The notes below the pieces were generated by a model that saw nothing but the letters and a program-made list of their open reading frames with translations, was not told where the DNA came from and did no database searches. From a virus, in IMG/VR virus record IMGVR_UViG_3300023296_001674: 25,260 nt of DNA; one strand, given 5' to 3'. The number at the start of each line of letters is the position of its first letter. The first letter of the stretch is position 1. Both the position numbers and the translations under genes were made by a program. Shown piece by piece: positions 980-24,774 of the stretch.

Positions 980-991
980 AGGAGTTAAATT

Positions 992-1294
992 ATGAATAAA
1001 AATAAAGCAGTGCGAAATCTTCAGTTGATGATTGATATCAGAGAAGGCAAGCCACCGGTTAGAACTACGGAGAAATCTGCGTTCAACAAAGGCATTGAAG
1101 TAAATCAACCAAAGCACGATGTTTCACGATATCAATATTTTTCTTCGTATACAGGAAGAATGTTATCGCAGCATGAAATGGGCATGATTCGGAGATTTCA
1201 ACAAGCAGAAAATCTTATGTTTGATGGATCGCATACGCAGATTTTTGCAAATGCAATTCGTGGGCATCAAGTTGAAGCAGTTAATAGGGGATAA
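992..1294 (+). CDS. hypothetical protein (100 aa)
   Basis: Strong SD aaaggag 8 nt upstream of ATG. Confidence 0.6.
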   Translation: MNKNKAVRNLQLMIDIREGKPPVRTTEKSAFNKGIEVNQPKHDVSRYQYFSSYTGRMLSQHEMGMIRRFQQAENLMFDGSHTQIFANAIRGHQVEAVNRG

Positions 1295-2881: not shown

Positions 2882-3043
2882 ATGACTTCTACTTTTAAAC
2901 ATAAACATATAGATACAGGGACCATTTGTAATGGTAACGGTATTGTTGTGTTTATGCGCAATGTAGTGAGAAATACAAATGATACAAAACGAGGTTGGGA
3001 TTTTACCAACTTTATCAAAGGCAAAGGAGTTAACGGGCATTAA
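2882..3043 (+). CDS. small hypothetical protein (53 aa), absent from the ORF track (under 60 aa)
   Basis: SD aaagga 9 nt upstream of ATG at 2882; sits between promoter 2681 and terminator 3073; the overlapping minus-strand ORFs have no signals. Confidence 0.4.
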   Translation: MTSTFKHKHIDTGTICNGNGIVVFMRNVVRNTNDTKRGWDFTNFIKGKGVNGH

Positions 3044-3072
3044 AACCTAAAATTCCAGTTCAAACAGAACTA

Positions 3073-3107
3073 AAAGCCTTTGATAGAAATATCAAAGGCT
3101 TTTTTTA
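3073..3107 (+). terminator. Rho-independent terminator: stem AAAGCCTTTGATA / TATCAAAGGCTTT followed by T7
   Basis: Long inverted repeat followed by ttttttt. Confidence 0.65.
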
Positions 3108-3394
3108 TTGAGCAAACGAGATCGAATACAGTGTTAACGCGGAACGAGACTGCTAGGAACACTTAAAATATACCTAATATGGGCGCGTTGTGGATGGATT
3201 TCCTTTTGTGGAATGATAAAAGCAATGGTAGGAAGCAAAGCGACCTACTAGGGAAAGCGTTATATGCTTTCCTGATAAGTTATTTTGTATGGAAGTGCCA
3301 TTAAAGCAGAACAATTGGTTTGGCGACCAAGCACCTTCGGGGCATAAAATCTGCTACTACTATACTATTTTAATCATAACTAAGTGTCACAAAA

Positions 3395-3464: not shown

Positions 3465-3822
3465 TTGGATTACGTTCAGTGTGCACACCGAACGCCACAA
3501 ATTATCTGTTATTATCGCGATAGTGATAGATAATGTTGGGTCACTTAGTTATGATTAAAGTTTTTAGGGTGTTCGTCTAGTGGATTAGGACGCGCCGCCT
3601 TGGGTAGTTGGAGTTCGATTCTCCTTAGCAACGGTTACGTAAATCCGCACGGTGAGACATTGGTTCGAATCCAATACATGTTAAAATAACGATTTCACAT
3701 GAGATGTATAGTTTTAATGGATAAATCAGGCATGAGCCTTGTGCGGCAAGATAGTGGGTTCGATTCCCCTTGCGTTGAATGTGAAATGATGCTATATTGG
3801 TTTTTTAATATAGGAGATAATA

Positions 3823-6089: not shown

Positions 6090-6854
6090 TTAATCATTGT
6101 GTAGTTGCGTTTTTTCATATTCATCGACATCAAGTTTTAATTGTTTATATGTGATAGATGATGTATTACGTTTTTTTACATTATCTTTCTGAAGCATTAT
6201 TTCACAATTTAATGGATGTGTAATATAATATGGATCATACTTGTTAACAATTGATTCATTTATAGATATTTTATGATCCCTCGCTACACCGTTTGAATTT
6301 TTCTTTGGGACATACCAACCATGTTTTTTTATTAAATCTAAATTGAGTAGATTGGGATAATCATTGACATCAAATTTGAAATAATATGGACGTTTCGTAG
6401 TTTGAAGTTCTTTTGCTGTTCTACCATATTGTTCAACGCAGCATTGACATTTTGATATATACCGATCTTTGGCGGTGAAAAGTGTAATACAGGTGGAGCA
6501 AGTTCTAAACCATACCATGGAATATTCACCATCGATATATTTTTTTAGTTTATCCCATCTTTTTGGATAATGACCAATATCTTTTATGATTTTGATATGA
6601 CTTTTACTCATTCGTTCTTTAGTTTCATTGCTATGTTTGCGACGGCTATTATTATATTTGGCGGCACAAGATTGATTACAATATTTCTTTTTTATAAGTG
6701 CTTCATCGTATGACCATGATTTGCCGCATTGGTTGCATGTTTTTGGATTTTTATTATATTCGGCAATGCGATGGTTTTTTTGATTTATTTGCGTTTTTCG
6801 TGAAGCTATAAATCCTAATTTACCAGCTTCAGATTTGGACAATTTACATGTCAT
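6090..6854 (-). CDS. HNH-family homing endonuclease (254 aa), one of four paralogs; N-terminal CxxC / C-N-Q-SCAAKYNNSRRK zinc-binding-like motif, C-terminal RDHxxS...HPxNC core
   Basis: SD aagga upstream of the ATG at 6854; conserved C-terminal block shared with ORFs 8344, 11473 and 14042. Confidence 0.75.
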   Translation of the reverse strand: MTCKLSKSEAGKLGFIASRKTQINQKNHRIAEYNKNPKTCNQCGKSWSYDEALIKKKYCNQSCAAKYNNSRRKHSNETKERMSKSHIKIIKDIGHYPKRWDKLKKYIDGEYSMVWFRTCSTCITLFTAKDRYISKCQCCVEQYGRTAKELQTTKRPYYFKFDVNDYPNLLNLDLIKKHGWYVPKKNSNGVARDHKISINESIVNKYDPYYITHPLNCEIMLQKDNVKKRNTSSITYKQLKLDVDEYEKTQLHND

Positions 6855-6967
6855 GGCATATTTTTCCTTGTTATAAATAACTATGGCGGTAGATCAATCC
6901 TTGTGTCTTTAGTGATAAGTGCTTCAACACTTGTCACGCCGCTACTACTATTTATAACTTATACTAA

Positions 6968-7061
6968 GTCGGATTTCCCTAACTGGTGTGGGTAGAATCC
7001 ATAATATGCACTGGGTGATCCTTATGTGCTGCACGTGGTTCGATTCCACGATCCGGCTCCA
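6968..7061 (+). tRNA. tRNA-like gene, 94 nt: good acceptor and T-arm, unresolved internal extension
   Basis: Acceptor gtcggat/atccggc (one G-U), T-arm cgtggTTCGATTccacg, CCA encoded. Confidence 0.4.
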
Positions 7062-7531: not shown

Positions 7532-7604
7532 TGTTTGATCGTCTTTGGAATACAAGATACCGTTGTCGAAGGCGGAGACGTTGGTTCGAATCCAACTTGA
7601 ACAC
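7532..7604 (+). tRNA. tRNA without encoded CCA; ambiguous anticodon loop (canonical numbering gives GUC; only a 6- or 8-nt loop pairs well)
   Basis: Acceptor tgtttga/ttgaaca 7/7, T-arm gttggTTCGAATccaac. Confidence 0.5.
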
Positions 7605-11228: not shown

Positions 11229-11498
11229 ATGGATAATAGTACATTAATAGCGTTAGGAAGTTTGTTGTTTGCCATGATTGGTGGATTTTGGGGTGTCATA
11301 ACATACATCCTTGGAATCATCAAGGTGGAAAACGTTGAACGTCGTGGTGTCCAAGAAAAATTATATATGCGCGATGATGTAGCCAAAGATGTAATGAACG
11401 AAAGTTTAACAGAAGTAAAAAGTACCATCCGTGATACGAATGATAGACTCATACGTGTAGAAACAATATTATATGAAAGAACTGATAGAACAAAATAA
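11229..11498 (+). CDS. small membrane protein (89 aa), one N-terminal TM helix
   Basis: Hydrophobic segment LIALGSLLFAMIGGFWGVITYILGII. Confidence 0.45.
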   Translation: MDNSTLIALGSLLFAMIGGFWGVITYILGIIKVENVERRGVQEKLYMRDDVAKDVMNESLTEVKSTIRDTNDRLIRVETILYERTDRTK

Positions 11499-12108
11499 AA
11501 TATGGTTTTTAAGCAAAACGGTAATACGTTGTATAAATAGTTATATGGTTGATTTAAGAAAGAGTTTGCAAACACCAAAAGTTTGCTGTATTGAATGTAA
11601 AACAATATTTAGAACTAATCATTTTGTTAGACACTCGAAGAAGCGATGTATTGAGTGGAAAAAGAAAAACGGCATGATCCCAAAAGGGAAGCGTGGCGGT
11701 TGGAATAAAGGATTAACGAAAATGACTAGTTCGTTGGTCAAAAAAGGAACCGATACTTATCGTCGCCGTTATGAAAATGGTGAATATACACGACGCACAC
11801 AAACCGATGATATAAAGAAACAATATTGGCAAGATTGTAAATTTAAATTCAATGTTTATAATTATCCTGAAATATTTGACTTAAATTTACTCGATAAATT
11901 TGGGTGGTATCATCCTGTAGAAAATCCAAGTGGCGTAAGTAGAGATCATATTATTTCTGTATCATATGGATGGAAAAATGGTATAGATTCGAATATTATT
12001 AATCATATAGCCAATTGTAAATTGATGATTCATTTAGAAAATAACAAAAAAAATAATCGATCTGATTTATTATTAGAAGAATTATTACAAAAAATACACT
12101 CTATGTAG
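11473..12108 (+). CDS. HNH-family homing endonuclease paralog (211 aa)
   Basis: SGVSRDHIISVSYGWKNGIDSNIINHIANCKLM core; N-terminal CxxC pairs. Confidence 0.7.
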   Translation: MKELIEQNKIWFLSKTVIRCINSYMVDLRKSLQTPKVCCIECKTIFRTNHFVRHSKKRCIEWKKKNGMIPKGKRGGWNKGLTKMTSSLVKKGTDTYRRRYENGEYTRRTQTDDIKKQYWQDCKFKFNVYNYPEIFDLNLLDKFGWYHPVENPSGVSRDHIISVSYGWKNGIDSNIINHIANCKLMIHLENNKKNNRSDLLLEELLQKIHSM

Positions 12109-12507: not shown

Positions 12508-12581
12508 GCGGGTATCGTATAATGGAATTACTACACATTGCCTATGTGTAGACGGGGGTTCGATTCCCCCTACCCGCTCCA
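12508..12581 (+). tRNA. tRNA, anticodon GCC (second Gly copy)
   Basis: Acceptor gcgggta/tacccgc perfect, anticodon stem acaca/tgtgt, loop ttgccta, T-arm gggggTTCGATTccccc. Confidence 0.75.
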
Positions 12582-12851: not shown

Positions 12852-12938
12852 AGAAGTACTTTGTATTGGTGAACTCAGCAGTCTCCAAAACTGTGTCGCA
12901 TTTGTGACTGGTAGGTTCGAATCCTACTACTTCTGCCA
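12852..12938 (+). tRNA. type-II-like tRNA (87 nt, variable-arm hairpin) whose anticodon loop reads CCA (Trp-like)
   Basis: Acceptor agaagta/tacttct perfect, anticodon stem gcagt/actgt, loop ctccaaa, T-arm gtaggTTCGAATcctac. Confidence 0.65.
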
Positions 12939-13329: not shown

Positions 13330-13400
13330 ACCTCCGCTGATGGTTCAGACATAAGCTTGCGAAGCTTGTTGGGAAAGTTCGATTCTTTTCGGGGGTTCCA
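13330..13400 (+). tRNA. compact tRNA (71 nt), anticodon loop ttgcgaa (GCG, Arg-like)
   Basis: Acceptor acctccg/cgggggt, T-arm gaaagTTCGATTctttt. Confidence 0.5.
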
Positions 13401-13441
13401 ATATTGTTATAGCTATGGAAATTAGTTCCTTCTTATCCCAA

Positions 13442-13509
13442 CCTGTAGGTCGTAGGTTCGAATCCTGCTCCTCGCGCCAATTATGCGGGGATAGCTCAGT
13501 GGTAGAGCA
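13442..13509 (+). tRNA. split/permuted-looking tRNA locus: 3' portion (13442-13479, anticodon 3' stem through encoded CCA), then attat, then 5' portion (13485-13509, acceptor plus D-arm GCGGGGATAGCTCAGTGGTAGAGCA)
   Basis: The 3' acceptor tcctcgc pairs 7/7 with the downstream gcgggga; anticodon 3' stem cctgt pairs with the downstream actgg. Confidence 0.4.
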
Positions 13510-13562
13510 ACTGGCAATTTTACTGGTTCCAATTATTATAGCAATATTTTATTAAATAGGTC

Positions 13563-13765: not shown

Positions 13766-13843
13766 TGACTAGTAGCTCAGTGGTTTAGAGCGGGGAGTTC
13801 TAAACTCTCGACAGCGTTGGTTCAAATCCAACCTGGTCAACCA
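13766..13843 (+). tRNA. tRNA with anticodon CUA (amber-suppressor-like); U1-A72 acceptor
   Basis: D-arm GCTCAGTGGTTTAGAGC, anticodon stem gggag/ctctc, loop ttctaaa, T-arm gttggTTCAAATccaac, CCA encoded. Confidence 0.6.
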
Positions 13844-13850
13844 ATACTAA

Positions 13851-14022
13851 GCGGGTATCGTATAATGGTATTATCGCAGCCTTCCATGTGATATGTTTAA
13901 CATATCTCAGGTTGAGCCATTTATTGGCTCCTTGAAGGTCGAGGGTTCAGACCCCATCCGGTTTAAGCCCGGTAGACCAACTTAAGCTGATGACGGGAGT
14001 TCGATTCTCCCTACCCGCTCCA
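13851..14022 (+). tRNA. tRNA-Gly(UCC)-like gene interrupted by a structured insertion of about 98 nt in the anticodon loop (about 13887-13984)
   Basis: 5' part gcgggta TC GTATAATGGTATTAT... and 3' part ...GACGGGAGTTCGATTCTCCCTACCCGCTCCA match the Gly tRNAs at 9685 and 12508; the 7/7 acceptor pairing exists only across the insertion. Confidence 0.5.
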
Positions 14023-14041: not shown

Positions 14042-14818
14042 ATGAAATGTAAACAATGTAAAATATCATTTACCCCTATCCCACAAGCAAAAAAAGGTAT
14101 ATTTTGTTCGCACGATTGTCATAATGTATACCAGCGCGTAAATACTCGTGAGCAATACTTAAAAAATCCCAAACGGTGTATTTTTTGTGATGATATAATA
14201 TCATATAGAGAAAATATAAAAGTGGCGAAGTTTTGCAATAGGTCTTGCGGGGCAAAATATAATAATAAAAGACGTACAGAATGCGGATACACCCCAAGTC
14301 ATAAAAAATGGTCTAGTGGTAAAATATCTGCTAAAATGTCATCAAAAATGCGCCGTGCGGATATCAAATCAAGTGTCGTGTTTGGTGATTTTACTATAAT
14401 AACATTTGCTATATGCAATATTACGAATAAACCATATGTTCTACAAACACCGCATGGTGGTATAAAGCAAATATCACCATATATTAAATCATCTAAACAG
14501 ATATATTATGAGCAAGCCAAATTTCGATTTAATGTATATGACTATCCAGATATATTTGATATAACACTTTTAGAAAAATATGGATGGTATACATGTCCCG
14601 GCAAGAAACGAAAAAATCAAAAAAAGAATATAAATGGTGTAAGTAGAGATCATATAATATCTATCAATGATGGATTTAAGAATGGGTATGATCCATATAT
14701 TTTAGCACATCCTGCTAATTGTCGATTGATTAAACAAGTGGATAATGTTAAAAAATTAGATAAATCTAATATGTCATATGACGAGTTATTGATTAACATA
14801 AAACAATGGAATGGATAG
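14042..14818 (+). CDS. HNH-family homing endonuclease paralog (MKCKQCK start; the ORF track's TTG at 14027 overlaps the tRNA), TAG stop
   Basis: CNRSCGAKYNNKRR motif and NGVSRDHIISINDGFKNGYDPYILAHPANCRL core. Confidence 0.7.
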   Translation: MKCKQCKISFTPIPQAKKGIFCSHDCHNVYQRVNTREQYLKNPKRCIFCDDIISYRENIKVAKFCNRSCGAKYNNKRRTECGYTPSHKKWSSGKISAKMSSKMRRADIKSSVVFGDFTIITFAICNITNKPYVLQTPHGGIKQISPYIKSSKQIYYEQAKFRFNVYDYPDIFDITLLEKYGWYTCPGKKRKNQKKNINGVSRDHIISINDGFKNGYDPYILAHPANCRLIKQVDNVKKLDKSNMSYDELLINIKQWNG

Positions 14819-14825
14819 ACTATTC

Positions 14826-14900
14826 GCCCCTATAGTACAATGGTTAATATGATCGCCCGGTAAGCGATAGATGAAAGTTCGATTCTTTCTAGAGGCACCA
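14826..14900 (+). tRNA. tRNA-Thr, anticodon GGU
   Basis: Anticodon stem atcgc/gcgat perfect, loop ccggtaa, T-arm gaaagTTCGATTctttc. Confidence 0.8.
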
Positions 14901-14912
14901 ATAAATAACAAT

Positions 14913-15728
14913 ATGACAATGACACCACCAAATATTATAATTTATAGTAATCCACGTTCAGGAACCACATTGCTTCATCATACATTATTATTATTTTTTC
15001 AAGAATATTATGGTGATTATTATTGTGATTTACATGAATTCTTTACAACATCGCATATGACAACGAGACATCGTAATAATATAGATGAAATAAATTCCAT
15101 TACGTATGAACAGAATAACAATATATTAATAAAGACATACAAGCCAGCAGATACCGAAAGCAATGACTTCGAAGAAGAATTGCAACAACGAATTTCACAA
15201 TGGAACAATTGTGTAATAGCTGATAACAATCAGCCGTTTATAACAAAAATATTTCACAAAAATTTGATTGATCACAATTTTTCAAATACAATATTTGATC
15301 ATTCATTAAATTTGGTTCTTGTAAGAAAAAACGTACAAGATATGATATTGAGTTTTATAATATCAAATAGCAACAATAACTGGTTTTATTATGAAAATGA
15401 AAATATAGAAACATTGCGCGGAAGTTTGATTGGTGATATAGATATAATACGCATTCATTTGGAACGCAATAAATTATTTCTTGAAAATATACCCAATATA
15501 CCCAATGCATTAATCATTGATTATGATGAACTTAATGACTATGAATATTTTTATCAAGTTATTATAGATATGGGCATTGTTGATATTCGTGAATTGCATG
15601 CCATGGAAATATTTGATAACATACAGCTAAAACGTAAAATTATTCCAACACCATATACAATGGATCGTATAGATTATTTTAAGAATGCCAATGAAATAAA
15701 AACACTCATGGATGAATATTGTTCTTGA
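14913..15728 (+). CDS. sulfotransferase-like protein (PRSGTT PAPS-binding-like motif near the N-terminus), 272 aa from the ATG at 14913
   Basis: NPRSGTTLLH resembles the sulfotransferase 5'-PSB loop; the ORF track start at 14871 overlaps a tRNA. Confidence 0.45.
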   Translation: MTMTPPNIIIYSNPRSGTTLLHHTLLLFFQEYYGDYYCDLHEFFTTSHMTTRHRNNIDEINSITYEQNNNILIKTYKPADTESNDFEEELQQRISQWNNCVIADNNQPFITKIFHKNLIDHNFSNTIFDHSLNLVLVRKNVQDMILSFIISNSNNNWFYYENENIETLRGSLIGDIDIIRIHLERNKLFLENIPNIPNALIIDYDELNDYEYFYQVIIDMGIVDIRELHAMEIFDNIQLKRKIIPTPYTMDRIDYFKNANEIKTLMDEYCS

Positions 15729-16799: not shown

Positions 16800-17129
16800 A
16801 TGGATAAAGCTGCGCTAAAAACACTTTCCGATACTCTTAATCGGATATGGGGAATCCCTGAACCAAGGGTCTATTATCCGAATAAACATTTCGAAAAACC
16901 TGAACCAGTTGAACAGACAATGTTCTCAGTGTTCATTCTTGACGCTGGTCCTAAACGGATTAACGTCATTAAAGAAATCAGATCAATCTTAGGATTGACC
17001 CTGAAAGAATCAAAGGATTTTGTTGATAATATAGACAAGAGCCTTGTTCAAGAAGACTTAGAAAAATGGGATGCAGATGCATTAGCCGAAACATTATCAA
17101 ATGTTGGAGCAACTGTTGAAGTTTCTTAA
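16800..17129 (+). CDS. ribosomal protein bL12 (L7/L12) C-terminal-domain homolog fused to a novel N-terminal segment (109 aa)
   Basis: FSVFILDAGPKRINVIKEIRSILGLTLKESKDFVDN...DADALAETLSNVGATVEV matches the bL12 CTD pattern. Confidence 0.6.
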   Translation: MDKAALKTLSDTLNRIWGIPEPRVYYPNKHFEKPEPVEQTMFSVFILDAGPKRINVIKEIRSILGLTLKESKDFVDNIDKSLVQEDLEKWDADALAETLSNVGATVEVS

Positions 17130-17225: not shown

Positions 17226-17241
17226 TTGTGGAGGCAATTAT

Positions 17242-17325
17242 GCGCGTAGCCGGTATGTTGGTACTACCACTGGTCTTCCAAACCAGCGCGAAAGCATTGG
17301 GGTTTGATTCCCCCTACCCGCTCCA
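17242..17325 (+). tRNA. tRNA, anticodon UCC (Gly-like), with an 11-nt extended variable region (84 nt)
   Basis: Acceptor gcgcgta/tacccgc 6/7, D-stem ggta/tacc, anticodon stem ctggt/accag, loop cttccaa, T-arm ggggTTTGATTcccc. Confidence 0.6.
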
Positions 17326-17471: not shown

Positions 17472-18023
17472 ATGCGCGGAACATTAGAAGTGATTACTGG
17501 CCCAATGTTTGCCGGTAAGACGACAGAAATAATAAAACGATTATTATGGTCAAAACATCAAGGTAAATCAACAATTATATACAAACCAGCAATGGATGAT
17601 AGATATAGTGAAACTGAAATAGTTACACATACCAAATTTTCATACGAAGCAACATCCATCATTGATAGTTTTAATATCAATCCAACATACGATCATTATT
17701 TTTTTGATGAAATACAGTTTCATGATAAAAATATTGTTCCATCTATAACTAAATTATTAGATGAAGGAAAAAATGTAACGGTGGCTGGTTTAGACGCTGA
17801 TTATAAAGGTGTTGCATTTGCGAACACTGCTACGTTAATGGCGATGGCAGACGAAGTATTTAAGATAAAATCGCATTGTAGTTTATGTGGCAAAGATGCT
17901 GCTAAAACATTTAAAACTGGTTCGACAAGCGACCAGCGCATAGAATTGGGTGAAAATGACTTATACCGTGCCAGATGTAATGAGCATTGGTATGTATCAG
18001 GAACTGACGATAGTTTTTCTTGA
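17472..18023 (+). CDS. tdk: thymidine kinase (TK1 family)
   Basis: P-loop GPMFAGKTTE, C-terminal CxxC...CxxH zinc ribbon; SD agga. Confidence 0.8.
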   Translation: MRGTLEVITGPMFAGKTTEIIKRLLWSKHQGKSTIIYKPAMDDRYSETEIVTHTKFSYEATSIIDSFNINPTYDHYFFDEIQFHDKNIVPSITKLLDEGKNVTVAGLDADYKGVAFANTATLMAMADEVFKIKSHCSLCGKDAAKTFKTGSTSDQRIELGENDLYRARCNEHWYVSGTDDSFS

Positions 18024-18079: not shown

Positions 18080-19063
18080 ATGGATAACAACAATTACAAC
18101 GATTTAAAACAGCGTTTGGTTAATGCAGGATGTTTCGAACGAGCGACATCGCATTATGTTCTACGTATTACAGCAATTCTAATTGCTTATGTGGGAGCAT
18201 ATTTTGTTCTGCTTACACAGCCACTAGGATTGGTTGCAGTGGGTGCATTGATTATTGCAGCCTTTGCCAGCGTTCAGGCTGGTTTCATTTCACACGATGC
18301 TGGTGATGGCGGTATTACATCAAATAAGATGCTATCTACCGGTATGCGACAATTCTTTTTATCGTTTGTTACTGGTGTGAGTAGTTCATATTTTCATGCA
18401 CTACATAAAGTGCATCACAAAACAATGTTTAAAGGATCATCGAAATCATCCGACACAGTTTCAGAAAATGAATACGAAGGCAAATGGTTGAAGAAATTAG
18501 TTTCACGTGATGGTTTGTTATTCATGGTAACGATGGTTACATTACGGGGATTCACATTCAAATTTGAAAGTGTAAAATATATGCTTAAACACGCCAATAA
18601 AACCGCCGCAGATCAACTGTTGGTGGGATTGCACGTTGTAGCATGGCTGATCGTTCCAATGATGATTATTGGACCAGTAGCCATTCTAAACTATGCATTA
18701 TTGACGTTGTTGATTGGACCTTATATCGGAACGGTATTGGTTATTAATCATGCCGGTATGGTAACAGCAAACCGACAAATGCATTTGCCTAAATTTGAAC
18801 GCGTAGTAAATACTACACGCAATCTTGGTGACGGCGTTTGGAACAATCTGTTCTTCGGTGGTGTAAACAACCATATTGAACACCATTTGTTTCCGGGTGT
18901 GCCAGTGCCAAATCTAGGTGAAGCTAGAAAGATTACTGAAGCCTTTTGTGAAGAACGTGGTATTAAATACACCAAAGCTTCATATTTCAGCGCATTAATC
19001 GAAGCCAAAGACCATTTCAAGGGTTTGTCTTCACAGAGATTAGTTGCTGAAGCACTCAACTAA
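18080..19063 (+). CDS. membrane fatty-acid-desaturase-family protein (desaturase / carotenoid-ketolase-like His boxes)
   Basis: HDAGD, HKVHH and HIEHHLFPGVP boxes with several TM segments; SD aggag. Confidence 0.65.
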   Translation: MDNNNYNDLKQRLVNAGCFERATSHYVLRITAILIAYVGAYFVLLTQPLGLVAVGALIIAAFASVQAGFISHDAGDGGITSNKMLSTGMRQFFLSFVTGVSSSYFHALHKVHHKTMFKGSSKSSDTVSENEYEGKWLKKLVSRDGLLFMVTMVTLRGFTFKFESVKYMLKHANKTAADQLLVGLHVVAWLIVPMMIIGPVAILNYALLTLLIGPYIGTVLVINHAGMVTANRQMHLPKFERVVNTTRNLGDGVWNNLFFGGVNNHIEHHLFPGVPVPNLGEARKITEAFCEERGIKYTKASYFSALIEAKDHFKGLSSQRLVAEALN

Positions 19064-19073
19064 GGGAAACTAT

Positions 19074-19550
19074 ATGTTTAAATTTAATGTATGTAATTAC
19101 AGTGATTCACTGTATTCAATGGACAACTATACCAAGGCTATTGGTATAGTTGATCCAGATGAAAAAGTAACACCATCAGAAAAATATCATGTTGCACGAT
19201 GCCACGATATAGTAATGCAGGAACACCCTTGGGTGGCTCCCACAATAGACCAGTTTGTCGCAATTATGAATTTTGCAGAAGATTTTACAGACGATGATGT
19301 TGTAATGATTCATTGCTCTGCTGGTATATCACGCAGCACTGCAACTGCCATATTGTTATTAATGTTGCATGGCGCTGACGAAGAAGAAGCATTTAATGCT
19401 GTTGAACAAAATAGACCAAACATGAATCCAAACACATTGATTCTTCGCTTTGCTGATGAATTATTAGGAATGGATGGCGGTTTGATTGAATATCATAAAC
19501 AATGGATGGCGAAACGGGTTATTAAACCAGTTAGTTTCGCAGGACAATAA
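19074..19550 (+). CDS. dual-specificity (Cys-based) protein phosphatase
   Basis: CX5R signature HCSAGISRS; SD aaggga before the ATG at 19074 (ORF track start 19044 is less likely). Confidence 0.7.
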   Translation: MFKFNVCNYSDSLYSMDNYTKAIGIVDPDEKVTPSEKYHVARCHDIVMQEHPWVAPTIDQFVAIMNFAEDFTDDDVVMIHCSAGISRSTATAILLLMLHGADEEEAFNAVEQNRPNMNPNTLILRFADELLGMDGGLIEYHKQWMAKRVIKPVSFAGQ

Positions 19551-20328: not shown

Positions 20329-20436
20329 TTCCAAGTAGCTCAGATGGTAGAGCGTCTGACTGTGGAACAGATGAGCCTAAAGCTTTGAAGTTCAAATTTA
20401 ATCAGAATGTCGGCGGTTCGATCCCGTCCTTGGAAG
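20329..20436 (+). tRNA. tRNA-His-like (anticodon GUG, second copy) with a structured insertion of about 40 nt in the variable position; no CCA
   Basis: Acceptor ttccaag/cttggaa perfect, D-arm GCTCAGATGGTAGAGC, loop ctgtgga, T-arm ggcggTTCGATCccgtc. Confidence 0.5.
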
Positions 20437-20575
20437 CAAATAAAAGTTTTAGGTCGTTCAATAAGCCATGTTTAGCGGCATGGTTAGGACAAGCGGGTAT
20501 AACCGCTAAATGGTATGCTGCAATCGGGGTTAACACTTATTGCAACGAGGTGAAAATCCACCCATAGAAATCAAT

Positions 20576-20667
20576 GCCTCGGTAGCTCAGAAAAGCAACG
20601 TAAGTTGTAGTGTAGTAGCAGGTGACTGAACCTCACCGTGTCGGTAGTTCGAATCTATCCTGGGGCA
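20576..20667 (+). tRNA. tRNA-like gene, 92 nt: canonical 3' two-thirds (anticodon stem ggtga/tcacc, loop ctgaacc = GAA) with about 17 extra nt between D and anticodon arms; no CCA
   Basis: Acceptor gcctcgg/ctggggc, T-arm ggtagTTCGAATctatc. Confidence 0.45.
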
Positions 20668-23768: not shown

Positions 23769-24368
23769 GTGCGGAAGCATCTACATACACGAACACTGTT
23801 GACACACTACGGAGGTGTCTTCATCGATAATAATGTCGAAGAAGTTATAGTTCCGTCGTTATGGGAACAGCAGACATTTATTGATAAAGCAGGAAGTGAA
23901 ATTGTAAATCAGATGTGGGCATTTGAAGATAAGAAAAATCGCCCCGTATGTTTGATACCAGAAGTTACTGGTGTTATACAAGAAATGTGGCGCGATGATT
24001 GGAGTAAATCCAAACCAAAGCCATATTCTATTTTTTATGTGAATCGTTGTTATCGTTATGAACGACCACAGAAGGGTAGATATAGAGAATTCACACAAAT
24101 CGGATTAGAAATTCTTGGTGATACATCAGGGAATGATTACGATATGGCAATTAATTTATTGCAAAAGTGTCTCGATTGTTTTACTATAGATTATAAACTT
24201 ACAGAAACGGTACAACGCGGTTTGGCGTATTATGTTGATGATGGGTTTGAAGTCGAATGTGAGAAGTTGGGCGCACAGAAGCAAATTGCTGGTGGTGGTC
24301 GATACAATGAAGGTATTGGTTGGGCTATCGGCGTTGATAGATTAATATTGGGGATTGATGATGACTAG
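23769..24368 (+). CDS. minimal class II aaRS catalytic core of the HisRS/HisZ type (motif 1 region FEDKKNRPVCLIPEVT, motif 2 YRYERPQKGRYREFTQ, motif 3 GGGRYNEG), lacking the insertion and anticodon-binding domains
   Basis: Motif recall against E. coli HisS; an upstream ATG at 23741 with SD aaggag opens a different frame (MLRGTRL...), suggesting a frameshift at about 23790. Confidence 0.65.
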   Translation: MRKHLHTRTLLTHYGGVFIDNNVEEVIVPSLWEQQTFIDKAGSEIVNQMWAFEDKKNRPVCLIPEVTGVIQEMWRDDWSKSKPKPYSIFYVNRCYRYERPQKGRYREFTQIGLEILGDTSGNDYDMAINLLQKCLDCFTIDYKLTETVQRGLAYYVDDGFEVECEKLGAQKQIAGGGRYNEGIGWAIGVDRLILGIDDD

Positions 24369-24774
24369 TTTACACCTTATTACTTCACCGCGTGAATATG
24401 TGACAACTATGACACATAACTCGGATTATCTTCAGTCTTGCAAGACTAATAAACCATCATGGAAAAAAGCGGATCGTTCATTTCATACACTCGAAAATGG
24501 TGACAAATTATTTAATGTGTACTATGATAATGGTAAATTATGCGTGCAAAGATGGTATCAAAAAAGTGCTAAAATTGAATCTAATGATCTTCATCGATTG
24601 GATGGTCCAGCATATATATCTTATTATGAAAATGGCATGTATTATCGATCTTCGTGGTGGATCAATGGAAATTCTATTTCAGGCAAAGTGATGCGATCAT
24701 GGTTAAAAGAAAATAATATTTCTTCGCCATATTCAGATGAAGATCAAATGGCAATAATATTAAGGTGGGGATGA
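24355..24774 (+). CDS. hypothetical protein (139 aa) with an internally repeated LHR.DGPA...NG segment
   Basis: ATGATGA overlap with the HisRS-like stop. Confidence 0.5.
   Translation: MMMTSLHLITSPREYVTTMTHNSDYLQSCKTNKPSWKKADRSFHTLENGDKLFNVYYDNGKLCVQRWYQKSAKIESNDLHRLDGPAYISYYENGMYYRSSWWINGNSISGKVMRSWLKENNISSPYSDEDQMAIILRWG

Follow-up and report, generated by a model that had tools for sequence, protein, structure and literature searches.

The sequence analysed here is a 25,260-nt stretch of viral DNA (IMG/VR record IMGVR_UViG_3300023296_001674), hereafter the window, in which a tRNA-Gly(UCC) gene at positions 13851-14022 is interrupted by an insert of 98 nt and followed by a gene encoding an HNH-like protein. 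The window belongs to the tRNA array of a phage with a very large genome, of about 570 kb (its proteins are encoded on contigs of up to 570,750 bp). Approximately 37 kb of this genome were read for gene-content comparisons. An identical sequence is present on a 74-kb Logan contig. The same neighbourhood was recovered on five contigs (Logan, JGI, and ENA), and the one that was read was identical across 17.8 kb, indicating that the region is not an assembly artefact. The locus contains the following features.

13851-13885, plus strand: exon 1 of tRNA-Gly(UCC), comprising the acceptor 5′ strand, D arm, anticodon-stem 5′ strand, and loop nucleotides C32-C36 (Rfam alignment)
13886-13983, plus strand: intervening sequence of 98 nt between tRNA nucleotides 36 and 37, absent from 26 related tRNA-Gly genes
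13984-14022, plus strand: exon 2, comprising A37, A38, anticodon-stem 3′ strand, variable loop, T arm, acceptor 3′ strand, U73, and CCA (Rfam alignment)
14042-14818, plus strand: gene for an HNH-like putative homing endonuclease (match to phrog_23051), starting 20 nt after the tRNA

The Rfam tRNA model (RF00005), used in a small-region scan, aligned end to end with positions 13851-14019 at 38.9 bits, for a gathering score of 29, with 100 inserted nt separating the strands of the anticodon stem. Default ARAGORN and a fast Rfam scan, which listed approximately 27 tRNAs in the window, skipped 13851-14022. ARAGORN reported the 98-nt intron when introns were allowed and the threshold was relaxed. 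An alternative ARAGORN reading, Lys(UUU) with an intron at 33/34, was discarded because it conflicts with the discriminator U73.

Both exons are intact. The acceptor stem comprises 7/7 Watson-Crick pairs, as had been noticed in a preliminary description made from the sequence alone, the T stem is paired at 5/5 positions and closes a TTCGATT loop, the discriminator is U73, and CCA is encoded. The single mismatch of the D stem, U13-U22, is common to the ordinary Gly(GCC) paralog at 12508, and the 5′ part of exon 1 is near-identical to the 5′ part of that gene. The spliced exon sequence, assembled in silico, folds as a cloverleaf. In E. coli, the identity set of tRNA-Gly consists of G1-C72, C2-G71, G3-C70, U73, C35, and C36, and this set is complete in the split gene. 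All 26 phage tRNA-Gly genes of IMG/VR that harbor the same T arm and acceptor strand were uninterrupted, with the anticodon loop CTTCCAA. Uninterrupted relatives of the tRNA therefore exist, and the 98 additional nt were inserted into a gene of a normal type. Together, these results confirm that 13851-14022 is a genuine tRNA-Gly(UCC) gene split in the anticodon loop by a structured 98-nt insert, as first described.

Junctions, fold, and conservation of the insert

A homologous split tRNA gene was found in a second phage, designated relB, which was located by a protein search with the downstream nuclease gene followed by contig look-up. The relB gene has the same length (172 nt) and is identical on eight Logan contigs. 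The source samples include SRR7528202 for the phage of the window and SRR30757693 for relB. Identity between the window and relB is 74% for exon 1, 76% for the intron, which is of the same length in both, 39/39 for exon 2, and 74-76% within the nuclease gene. Junctions at 36/37 and 37/38 yield the same product from the window sequence alone. In relB, C36 is followed by U, and the insert ends in ...AAAUC before AAGCUGA. Only a 36/37 junction restores the canonical CUUCCAA loop in this gene, which defines the intron as 13886-13983. Taking into account relB and a third split gene, tRNA-Lys(UUU) of locus L073 (see below), a purine at position 37 and a canonical loop were likewise obtained only with the 36/37 junction. 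The inserts end in different tails, AAAUC in relB and AACCGGC in L073, and exon 2 starts with AA in all three genes. The predicted spliced junction of the tRNA of the window is ...GCAGCCUUCC|AAGCUGAUG.... The insert had been assigned to position 37/38, the archaeal and eukaryotic site; relB corrects this assignment, and no bulge-helix-bulge (BHB) motif is present. The elements of the insert are as follows.

13890-13906, plus strand: helix P-a (GAUAUGU/ACAUAUC) of the minimum-energy fold; the loop-closing pair U-A is A-U in relB
13907-13935, plus strand: helix P-b of the minimum-energy fold, 5 + 6 pairs with a UU bulge, abutting P-a and covarying with relB
13937-13978, plus strand: domain P-c, a three-way junction closed by GGUC/GACC and containing hairpins P3 and P4
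13943-13954, plus strand: hairpin P3, with a G-C to A-U change between the window and relB
13958-13972, plus strand: hairpin P4 (CCGG-UUUAAGC-CCGG), inside P-c
13979-13983, plus strand: single-stranded 3′ tail AACUU, ending at the 3′ junction N|A37 and unpaired in all folds

Folded alone, the insert forms three hairpin domains at -38.3 kcal/mol (z = -4.9), a structure that includes the hairpins named in the preliminary description. Its fold energy was the lowest among 257 segments of 98 nt taken across the 25-kb window, and its z-score was within the top 1.2%, values as extreme being found in only 3 of the 257. These three segments (z of -5.0 to -5.8) are located at 3039-3136, 6861-6958, and 19111-19208. 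The three introns all fold far better than shuffled sequences (z = -4.9, -4.1, and -4.4). The fold of the insert and that of the tRNA are compatible within one minimum-energy structure. For P-c, RNAalifold applied to the two homologs picked the form containing P3 and P4, and the compensatory G-C to A-U change also favours the three-way junction. The block CCGGUAGACCAA within P-c is invariant between the window and relB.

The base pairs of the cloverleaf and of P-a, P-b, and P-c that changed between the two phages all still pair (8/8). Five of them changed on both sides: one in the D stem (GTAT/TTAT in the window, GCAC/GTGC in relB), one in P-a, one in P3, and two in P-b, which places four in helices of the insert. 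P-b contains, in addition, two pairs that changed on one side. The probability that random substitutions at these sites preserve pairing equally well is about 6e-4. In an unedited MAFFT alignment, 98.9% of the cells were paired, with 3 double changes, for 38-47% and at most 1 double change in a control in which the partners were slid. The preservation of all changed pairs, five of them by changes on both sides, indicates that the insert is a selected RNA structure rather than a product of decay, and the comparison of the two sequences thus shows selection on the fold of the intron. The possibility of a decaying pseudogene, raised in the preliminary description, is now unlikely, since relB keeps the split gene and compensatory changes are found in three helices of the insert and in the D stem.

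Further copies of the insert were sought in several ways. No paralog was detected in the window by blastn-short. An exact 19-mer of the insert was absent from IMG/VR, patterns of the insert core were found neither in metagenome contigs nor in IMG/VR, and the exon pattern with a gap of 85-115 nt was not found in JGI metagenome contigs, a set that does not contain this phage. A single GTDB match to the core pattern was attributed to chance, as it lies in a GC-rich coding region. The intron covariance model R1 retrieved only the two known copies and, weakly, a different split tRNA (L067, see below). Comparison of the insert with 50,697 phage records by blastn gave only one match, in which 19 nt of P4 are identical to the anticodon arm of an Enterococcus phage tRNA(UAA) (E = 3). 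Local alignment of the insert with the tRNAs of the window gave a score of 31; in 200 controls with a shuffled insert, the 95th percentile was slightly higher (32). No close relative of the phage was found through neighbouring genes: relatives identified by a DUF7275 protein (57-68% identity) had no syntenic tRNA array, and the sulfotransferase-like neighbour had no homolog besides itself.

A frame of 30 codons, from ATG to TAA, fills the insert (13893-13985, plus strand) and lacks a ribosome-binding site; it is probably due to chance. The insert had been considered too short to encode a protein. The existence of this frame contradicts the argument from length, and nothing supports its translation; the compensatory changes, which point to selection at the RNA level, make a coding function unlikely. 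On the minus strand, a match to the freshwater-2 RNA motif (13918-13991; 19.6 bits, E = 0.28), in which AAGGAG-N7-ATG opens an ORF of 7 codons only, is also probably fortuitous. A scan for promoters and terminators gave nothing above chance.

The adjoining putative nuclease gene, related split tRNAs, and the surrounding array

The product of the gene located at 14042-14818 matches phrog_23051, with weak matches to HNH and endonuclease VII proteins, and HNH endonuclease PHROGs were matched by 5 of 10 members of its family. A homolog, P0123, 62% identical, is encoded directly downstream of the relB split tRNA on the 8 contigs. In blastn, the window and relB are similar over 933 nt (73.5%), from exactly the first base of the tRNA to a point within the nuclease gene. 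No homolog of any of the 12 relB genes on either side was present in the approximately 37 kb read for the present phage (0/12). Since similarity is confined to that stretch and the flanking genes are not shared, the split tRNA and the nuclease gene form a cassette, and their comparison shows that the intron and the nuclease gene are adjacent and co-inherited in different genomic contexts. The preliminary description did not mention this link of the split tRNA to the adjoining HNH-like gene.

A search of IMG/VR with the nuclease as a single sequence gave no match. A profile built from ten members of the family retrieved 79 IMG/VR loci, all of which contained a tRNA within 1.5 kb (437 tRNAs in 270 kb). 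The window itself contains three paralogs, 35-37% identical to each other, each within approximately 30 nt of a tRNA gene; the two further paralogs adjoin tRNA-Thr and tRNA-Cys.

6090-6854, minus strand: HNH-like family paralog
11473-12108, plus strand: HNH-like family paralog
14042-14818, plus strand: HNH-like family paralog downstream of the split tRNA-Gly

A strict, purpose-built finder of split tRNAs recovered the known cases and, in addition, the split tRNA-Lys of L073. The forced-intron mode of ARAGORN, which on arrays mostly fuses adjacent tRNAs, was excluded from the counts. Two types of split tRNA in other phages were located near members of the same nuclease family.

L073, 1049-1212: split tRNA-Lys(UUU) with an 87-nt insert that fits only at 36/37
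L067-L069, in L067 at about 990-1120, minus strand: split tRNA(UUG) interrupted by about 48 nt, close to a nuclease family member

The insert of L073 has the same three-domain layout as that of the window, with P-a abutting a long P-b and P-c closed by GGUCC/GGACC, followed by an AAC tail. A gene of the nuclease family (37% identity) is located approximately 145 nt downstream. The insert of L067 contains a T-loop-like hairpin, CAGG-UGCAAGU-CCUG, and L067-L069 also carry a tRNA(CUA).

Two other tRNAs of the window have unusual loops. The tRNA at 20329-20437 is His(GUG)-like (54 bits) and has about 35 extra nt in the anticodon loop; ARAGORN instead proposes a long variable arm and an intron of 17 nt. 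The discriminator of this tRNA is G, CCA is not encoded, and the insert is not unusually stable (z = -1.1). The tRNA at 20576-20667 (36.7 bits; loop CUGAACC, anticodon GAA) has a hairpin insertion of about 20 nt in the D loop, which resembles the tRNA-Met D-loop insertion reported for a 595-kb JGI phage.

Unusual or decayed tRNA genes seem to be abundant in the array. An amber-suppressor tRNA (CUA; labelled tRNA-Pyl by ARAGORN; 57 bits) is located at 13766-13843, 7 nt upstream of the split tRNA-Gly. TAG ends 10 of the 58 called genes near this tRNA, and no in-frame TAG was seen in called genes. Approximately a dozen well-formed T arms are located outside the called tRNAs (3566-3683, 3754, 7034, 7261, 7364, 7580, 9216, 12911, 13373, 13452, and 23688), and one such orphan site corresponds to a composite tRNA-like match (31.3 bits) with a second T arm nested in an anticodon-loop insertion. 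Sub-threshold or Sec-like tRNA matches were obtained at 12852-12934, 17241-17322, 6967-7058, 7532-7604, and 13330-13397. A Y RNA-like element (YrlA, RF02553) is located at 13405-13550 (core 13445-13511; 32.4 bits, E = 0.0016). It consists of a circularly permuted tRNA-like domain, with a T arm, an acceptor stem closed by GCCAAUUAU, a D arm, and a long terminal stem. About 15 kb upstream of this element, outside the window (L038, 7832-8281), a gene encodes a 149-aa protein that faintly matches TROVE (Ro). The window also encodes a 199-aa core fragment of a class II (His-type) aminoacyl-tRNA synthetase (23769-24368), overlapped by a 137-aa ORF (24361-24774); the two may represent a split or frameshifted synthetase gene. 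Cell-like genes in or near the array encode a ribosomal protein L12-like protein, a thymidine kinase, a fatty-acid desaturase, a sulfotransferase-like protein, a ClpX-like ATPase, and IF3 (window, 16800-17129, 17472-18023, 18080-19063, and 14871-15728; flank, L038 826-2085 and 8867-9382).

Proposed removal and spread of the insert

Introns of bacterial and phage tRNAs are usually group I ribozymes. Group I introns contain a P3-P9 core, including a G-binding P7, and natural examples in tRNAs are at least 200 nt long. Their 5′ exon ends in U, engaged in the U-G pair of P1, and their last nucleotide is G. The insert comprises just 98 nt and three simple domains, its 5′ exon ends in C36, and its own last nucleotide is U in the window and C in relB and L073. 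No group I family was detected in three small-region Rfam scans with E values up to 10. The size, the Rfam scans, and the nucleotides at the ends of the exon and intron all agree with the initial opinion that the insert is not a group I intron. BHB introns are defined by two 3-nt bulges, which contain the splice sites and are separated by a 4-bp helix, and their canonical position is 37/38. Here, both junctions fall within unpaired stretches of 7-9 nt where several helices meet in the folds of the window and of relB, a possible pairing of the anticodon with the intron (CCUUC/GAAGG) is lost in relB (GUGGG), and the relB and L073 junctions place the site at 36/37. Removal of the insert would not proceed by group I or group II chemistry or by an archaeal-type BHB endonuclease.

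GGA, the codon read by Gly(UCC), accounts for 31% of the Gly codons of the phage, and no other Gly(UCC) tRNA gene was found in the 37 kb that were read. If the phage is to retain a functional Gly(UCC) tRNA, the intron must leave the transcript. We tentatively propose, with a probability of about 0.45, that the insert is a mobile ORF-less intron associated with a free-standing HNH-like homing endonuclease and spliced by a non-group-I route. This proposal builds on the split gene, its conserved fold, the cassette, and the restriction of the nuclease family to tRNA arrays, all of which the comparisons above show. The intron, the 3′ exon, and the HNH-like gene would move as one cassette from one phage tRNA array to another. 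In competing phages, the nuclease would cut those tRNA-Gly(UCC) genes that are devoid of an intron, the insertion would shield the carrier's own tRNA-Gly(UCC) gene from cutting, and repair of the cut gene would copy the intron and the nuclease gene together. In the transcript, two structure-guided cuts, after C36 and before A37, would release the intron, and an RNA ligase would then seal the anticodon loop. Repair of anticodon loops is performed by T4-like phages, and more distant relatives of the present phage carry genes for RNA ligase, RlaP, and CCA-adding enzyme.

Several points weigh against this proposal. Splicing and the enzymes responsible for it are predicted from sequence, and neither an endonuclease nor a ligase for splicing was found in about 37 kb of the 570-kb genome. 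We likewise infer homing, the nuclease target, and the immunity conferred by the intron, and cleavage of the target site by the nuclease is a prediction only. The protein matched nothing in Pfam or in sequence searches of the PDB, and its AlphaFold model was poor (pLDDT 59.6) and unusable for a fold search, so that the assignment as a nuclease relies on the PHROG matches only. Distant homologs of the nuclease in L051 and L052 are encoded near uninterrupted tRNA-Gly(UCC) genes; the family is therefore tied to tRNA genes generally and to Gly(UCC) repeatedly, and not always to an intron. The insert has only two close homologs, counting that of the window, plus one architectural relative, the covariation comes from these two close homologs only, and a two-row shuffle control (57/500) cannot discriminate. 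Finally, selection in place need not be the reason why the exons look intact, as intact genes may have been invaded repeatedly.

The last point forms part of the main rival explanation, according to which the insertion inactivated the tRNA gene and is never removed, being kept as a shield against the linked nuclease. In such a dead gene, intact-looking exons would be explained by continued invasion of, and repair of the cassette from, undamaged tRNA-Gly genes. The array abounds in tRNA debris, including the orphan T arms and composite tRNA-like pieces, relB contains a second UCC tRNA-like gene, the resemblance of the 5′ part of exon 1 to the paralog at 12508 is expected of a co-conversion boundary, and no splicing enzyme was found in the 37 kb. 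However, the four compensatory changes inside the insert point to selection on an RNA fold, which a passive scar would not need. The length and all helices are kept at 76% identity next to an exon 2 conserved at 39/39 positions, a similar insert occupies the 36/37 site of a different tRNA in L073, and the same pattern is found in four tRNAs of Lak megaphages. We consider this explanation, which is weakened by the selection on the intron fold, less likely than our proposal. The unspliced RNA might instead be functional as a chimera, in which the 98-nt domain is displayed where the anticodon loop would be, and the tRNA body acts as a scaffold for processing and stability or diverts host defences that target tRNAs. 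The compatibility of the two folds in one structure would suit such a chimera, the same array encodes the YrlA-like tRNA mimic (about 13405-13550), and T4 keeps the non-tRNA stable RNAs rnaC and rnaD in its tRNA cluster. Exact conservation of the UCC anticodon and of the loop flanks that restore CUUCCAA in both phages, as well as the same layout in a Lys(UUU) tRNA whose anticodon is again kept, are not accounted for, and no known RNA family matches; we regard a chimera as decidedly improbable.

A conserved multi-helix fold is not expected of a passively removed intron and is unusual among introns spliced by proteins, a feature in favour of a new small self-cleaving or self-excising ribozyme. 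The three-way junction and the T-loop-like hairpin would dock on the anticodon-loop junction and cut N|A37, possibly also C36|N, the exons being joined by a ligase such as RtcB. The sole Rfam ribozyme signal was a match to twister-sister (RF02681), at 12.9-14.5 bits for a cut-off of 34 (E = 0.75-2.3). It comes from CCGG-UUUAAGC-CCGG, which resembles stem-loop 4 and matches 7/9 of its loop nucleotides. If the anticodon stem stood for P1 and GGUC/GACC for P2, twister-sister cleavage, two nt before P1, would fall at the 3′ junction (deduced from PMC5660989). The conserved L1 nucleotides of twister-sister are G5, C6, A8, G9, and G59-C60-U61-N62-A63-U64 (PMC5660989). In the alignment, the 3′ strand of L1 (GCUCAU) is absent or deleted and the catalytic G5 is unmatched; the 5′ strand reads UGAAG here and UGUGG in relB, which also alters other matched positions (UUUAAGC to UUUGAAU and GAAG to GUGG). 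The L073 intron is devoid of the hairpin, and no ribozyme family was found in the split tRNA of L067. A circularly permuted version of twister-sister was also dropped after comparison with relB and with the crystal structure. An intron ribozyme thus appears improbable. The same holds for the broader possibility that the insert and its relB and L073 relatives form a small catalytic intron class at 36/37 of phage tRNAs, which would excise itself or cut its junctions by means of the anticodon stem and be spread by the HNH family. The preliminary description had also mentioned two independent genes. P-c and exon 2 might form a second tRNA with a long variable arm, Leu(UAA) here and Ser(UGA) in relB, and use the same T arm and 3′ acceptor strand as the Gly gene. 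Default ARAGORN calls a tRNA-Ser(UGA) made of P-c and exon 2 in relB (L043, 1285-1373), P4 equals a tRNA(UAA) anticodon arm over 19 nt, and the Thr intron of Lak is likewise predicted to hold a tRNA. In the window, however, the alternative acceptor stem pairs at 4/7 positions only and ARAGORN makes no call, the relB substitution that improves this stem is already explained by compensation in P-b, U73 fits Gly and neither Leu nor Ser, and the 19-nt match has an E value of 3. Overlapping genes are hardly credible on this evidence.

Short non-group-I introns in megaphage tRNAs, noticed in 2019, lacked an explanation, and the present case makes their removal testable. It adds selection on the intron fold, use of the 36/37 site in two different tRNAs, and travel with a nuclease family of tRNA arrays. 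It also offers a 172-nt transcript that can be assayed for splicing or self-cleavage and a defined DNA target for the candidate homing endonuclease. If spliced, the intron would reveal an undescribed route of tRNA splicing in bacteria or their phages; if not, phages would tolerate selfish inactivation of their own tRNA genes. A catalytic intron, were it to be confirmed, would also explain the "enigmatic" introns of megaphages. Since standard tRNA finders miss such split genes, phage tRNA repertoires are under-counted.

Comparison with known systems

Collaborative homing was reportedly described by Zeng, Bonocora and Shub in 2009 for an ORF-less group I intron in cyanophage psbA and the free-standing endonuclease F-CphI. 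The present system resembles it in combining an ORF-less intron in a conserved gene with an adjoining nuclease gene, the two being inherited as a cassette. In contrast to the psbA intron, the present one comprises 98 nt and has none of the group I hallmarks, and homing is putative. BHB introns are similar in being short introns of the anticodon loop that are neither group I nor group II, and two cuts followed by ligation are the expected chemistry in both cases. They differ by their site and motif, and the present intron has a conserved complex fold of its own and resides in a phage of bacteria; we know of no EndA-type enzyme in bacteria. Twister-sister shares with the insert a three-way junction, a T-loop-like hairpin, and part of the L1 5′ strand, whereas the score is below the cut-off, neither the L1 3′ strand nor G5 is present, and relB differs at the matched positions. 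In T4, segB is a free-standing homing endonuclease gene inside the tRNA cluster, according to the T4 annotation and PMC13096335. The nuclease gene described here is similarly free-standing among phage tRNA genes, and its family was always found in tRNA arrays. SegB is a GIY-YIG enzyme, in contrast to the HNH-like protein, and the tRNA genes of T4 are uninterrupted. The T4 RNAs rnaC and rnaD were rejected as analogues because they are not tRNAs with an insert.

The preliminary description considered an interrupted phage tRNA unexpected. There is a precedent in Lak megaphages, in which tRNAs with "enigmatic introns" were reported for Tyr(GTA), Phe(GAA), Thr(TGT), and Gly(TCC), the last at the same site as here, and in a 595-kb JGI phage, in which four or more tRNAs contain an intron and one of these has its insertion in the D loop (Devoto et al., 2019; PMC6784885). 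The Lak introns comprise 79-141 nt, have no Rfam match, and are lacking from alleles in related genomes; their true site is one nucleotide off the 37/38 prediction, and that of tRNA-Thr is predicted to hold a tRNA (PMC6784885). We found no later literature on the mechanism of megaphage tRNA introns. Lak genomes encode a T4-type RNA ligase 2. Common to the four Lak introns are a 5′ hairpin, whose 6-nt loop is A-rich, a AAATTAAA linker, and a tRNA-like module bearing a T arm, and the 5′ hairpin and the T arm covary across the four.

The two systems are alike in several respects. Both are found in phages whose genomes exceed 500 kb, are inserted in the anticodon loop immediately 3′ of the anticodon, at CUUCCA|...|A in the case of Gly(UCC), and have no Rfam match. 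Their lengths are comparable, paralogous introns are present in several tRNAs, and a hairpin at the 5′ end of the intron is combined with a tRNA-like module near the 3′ end. In contrast, no sequence similarity was detectable with MAFFT, and the phage lineages differ (36% GC here, 26% in Lak). The Lak introns have the AAATTAAA linker, an acceptor-like helix of 7-8 bp, and a T arm with TTCGAAT located 2 nt before the junction, whereas in the present intron a second hairpin, also long, is followed by a three-way junction with GGUC/GACC as its closing helix and by a 5-nt tail. Linkage to a nuclease gene and covariation of the kind found here are unreported for Lak. The insert thus has the general features of the Lak-type megaphage tRNA intron and lacks the shared Lak sequence and structure, the 5′ hairpin being the only common element. 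It is the same kind of intron as those of Lak, in a different sequence family and a different phage lineage.

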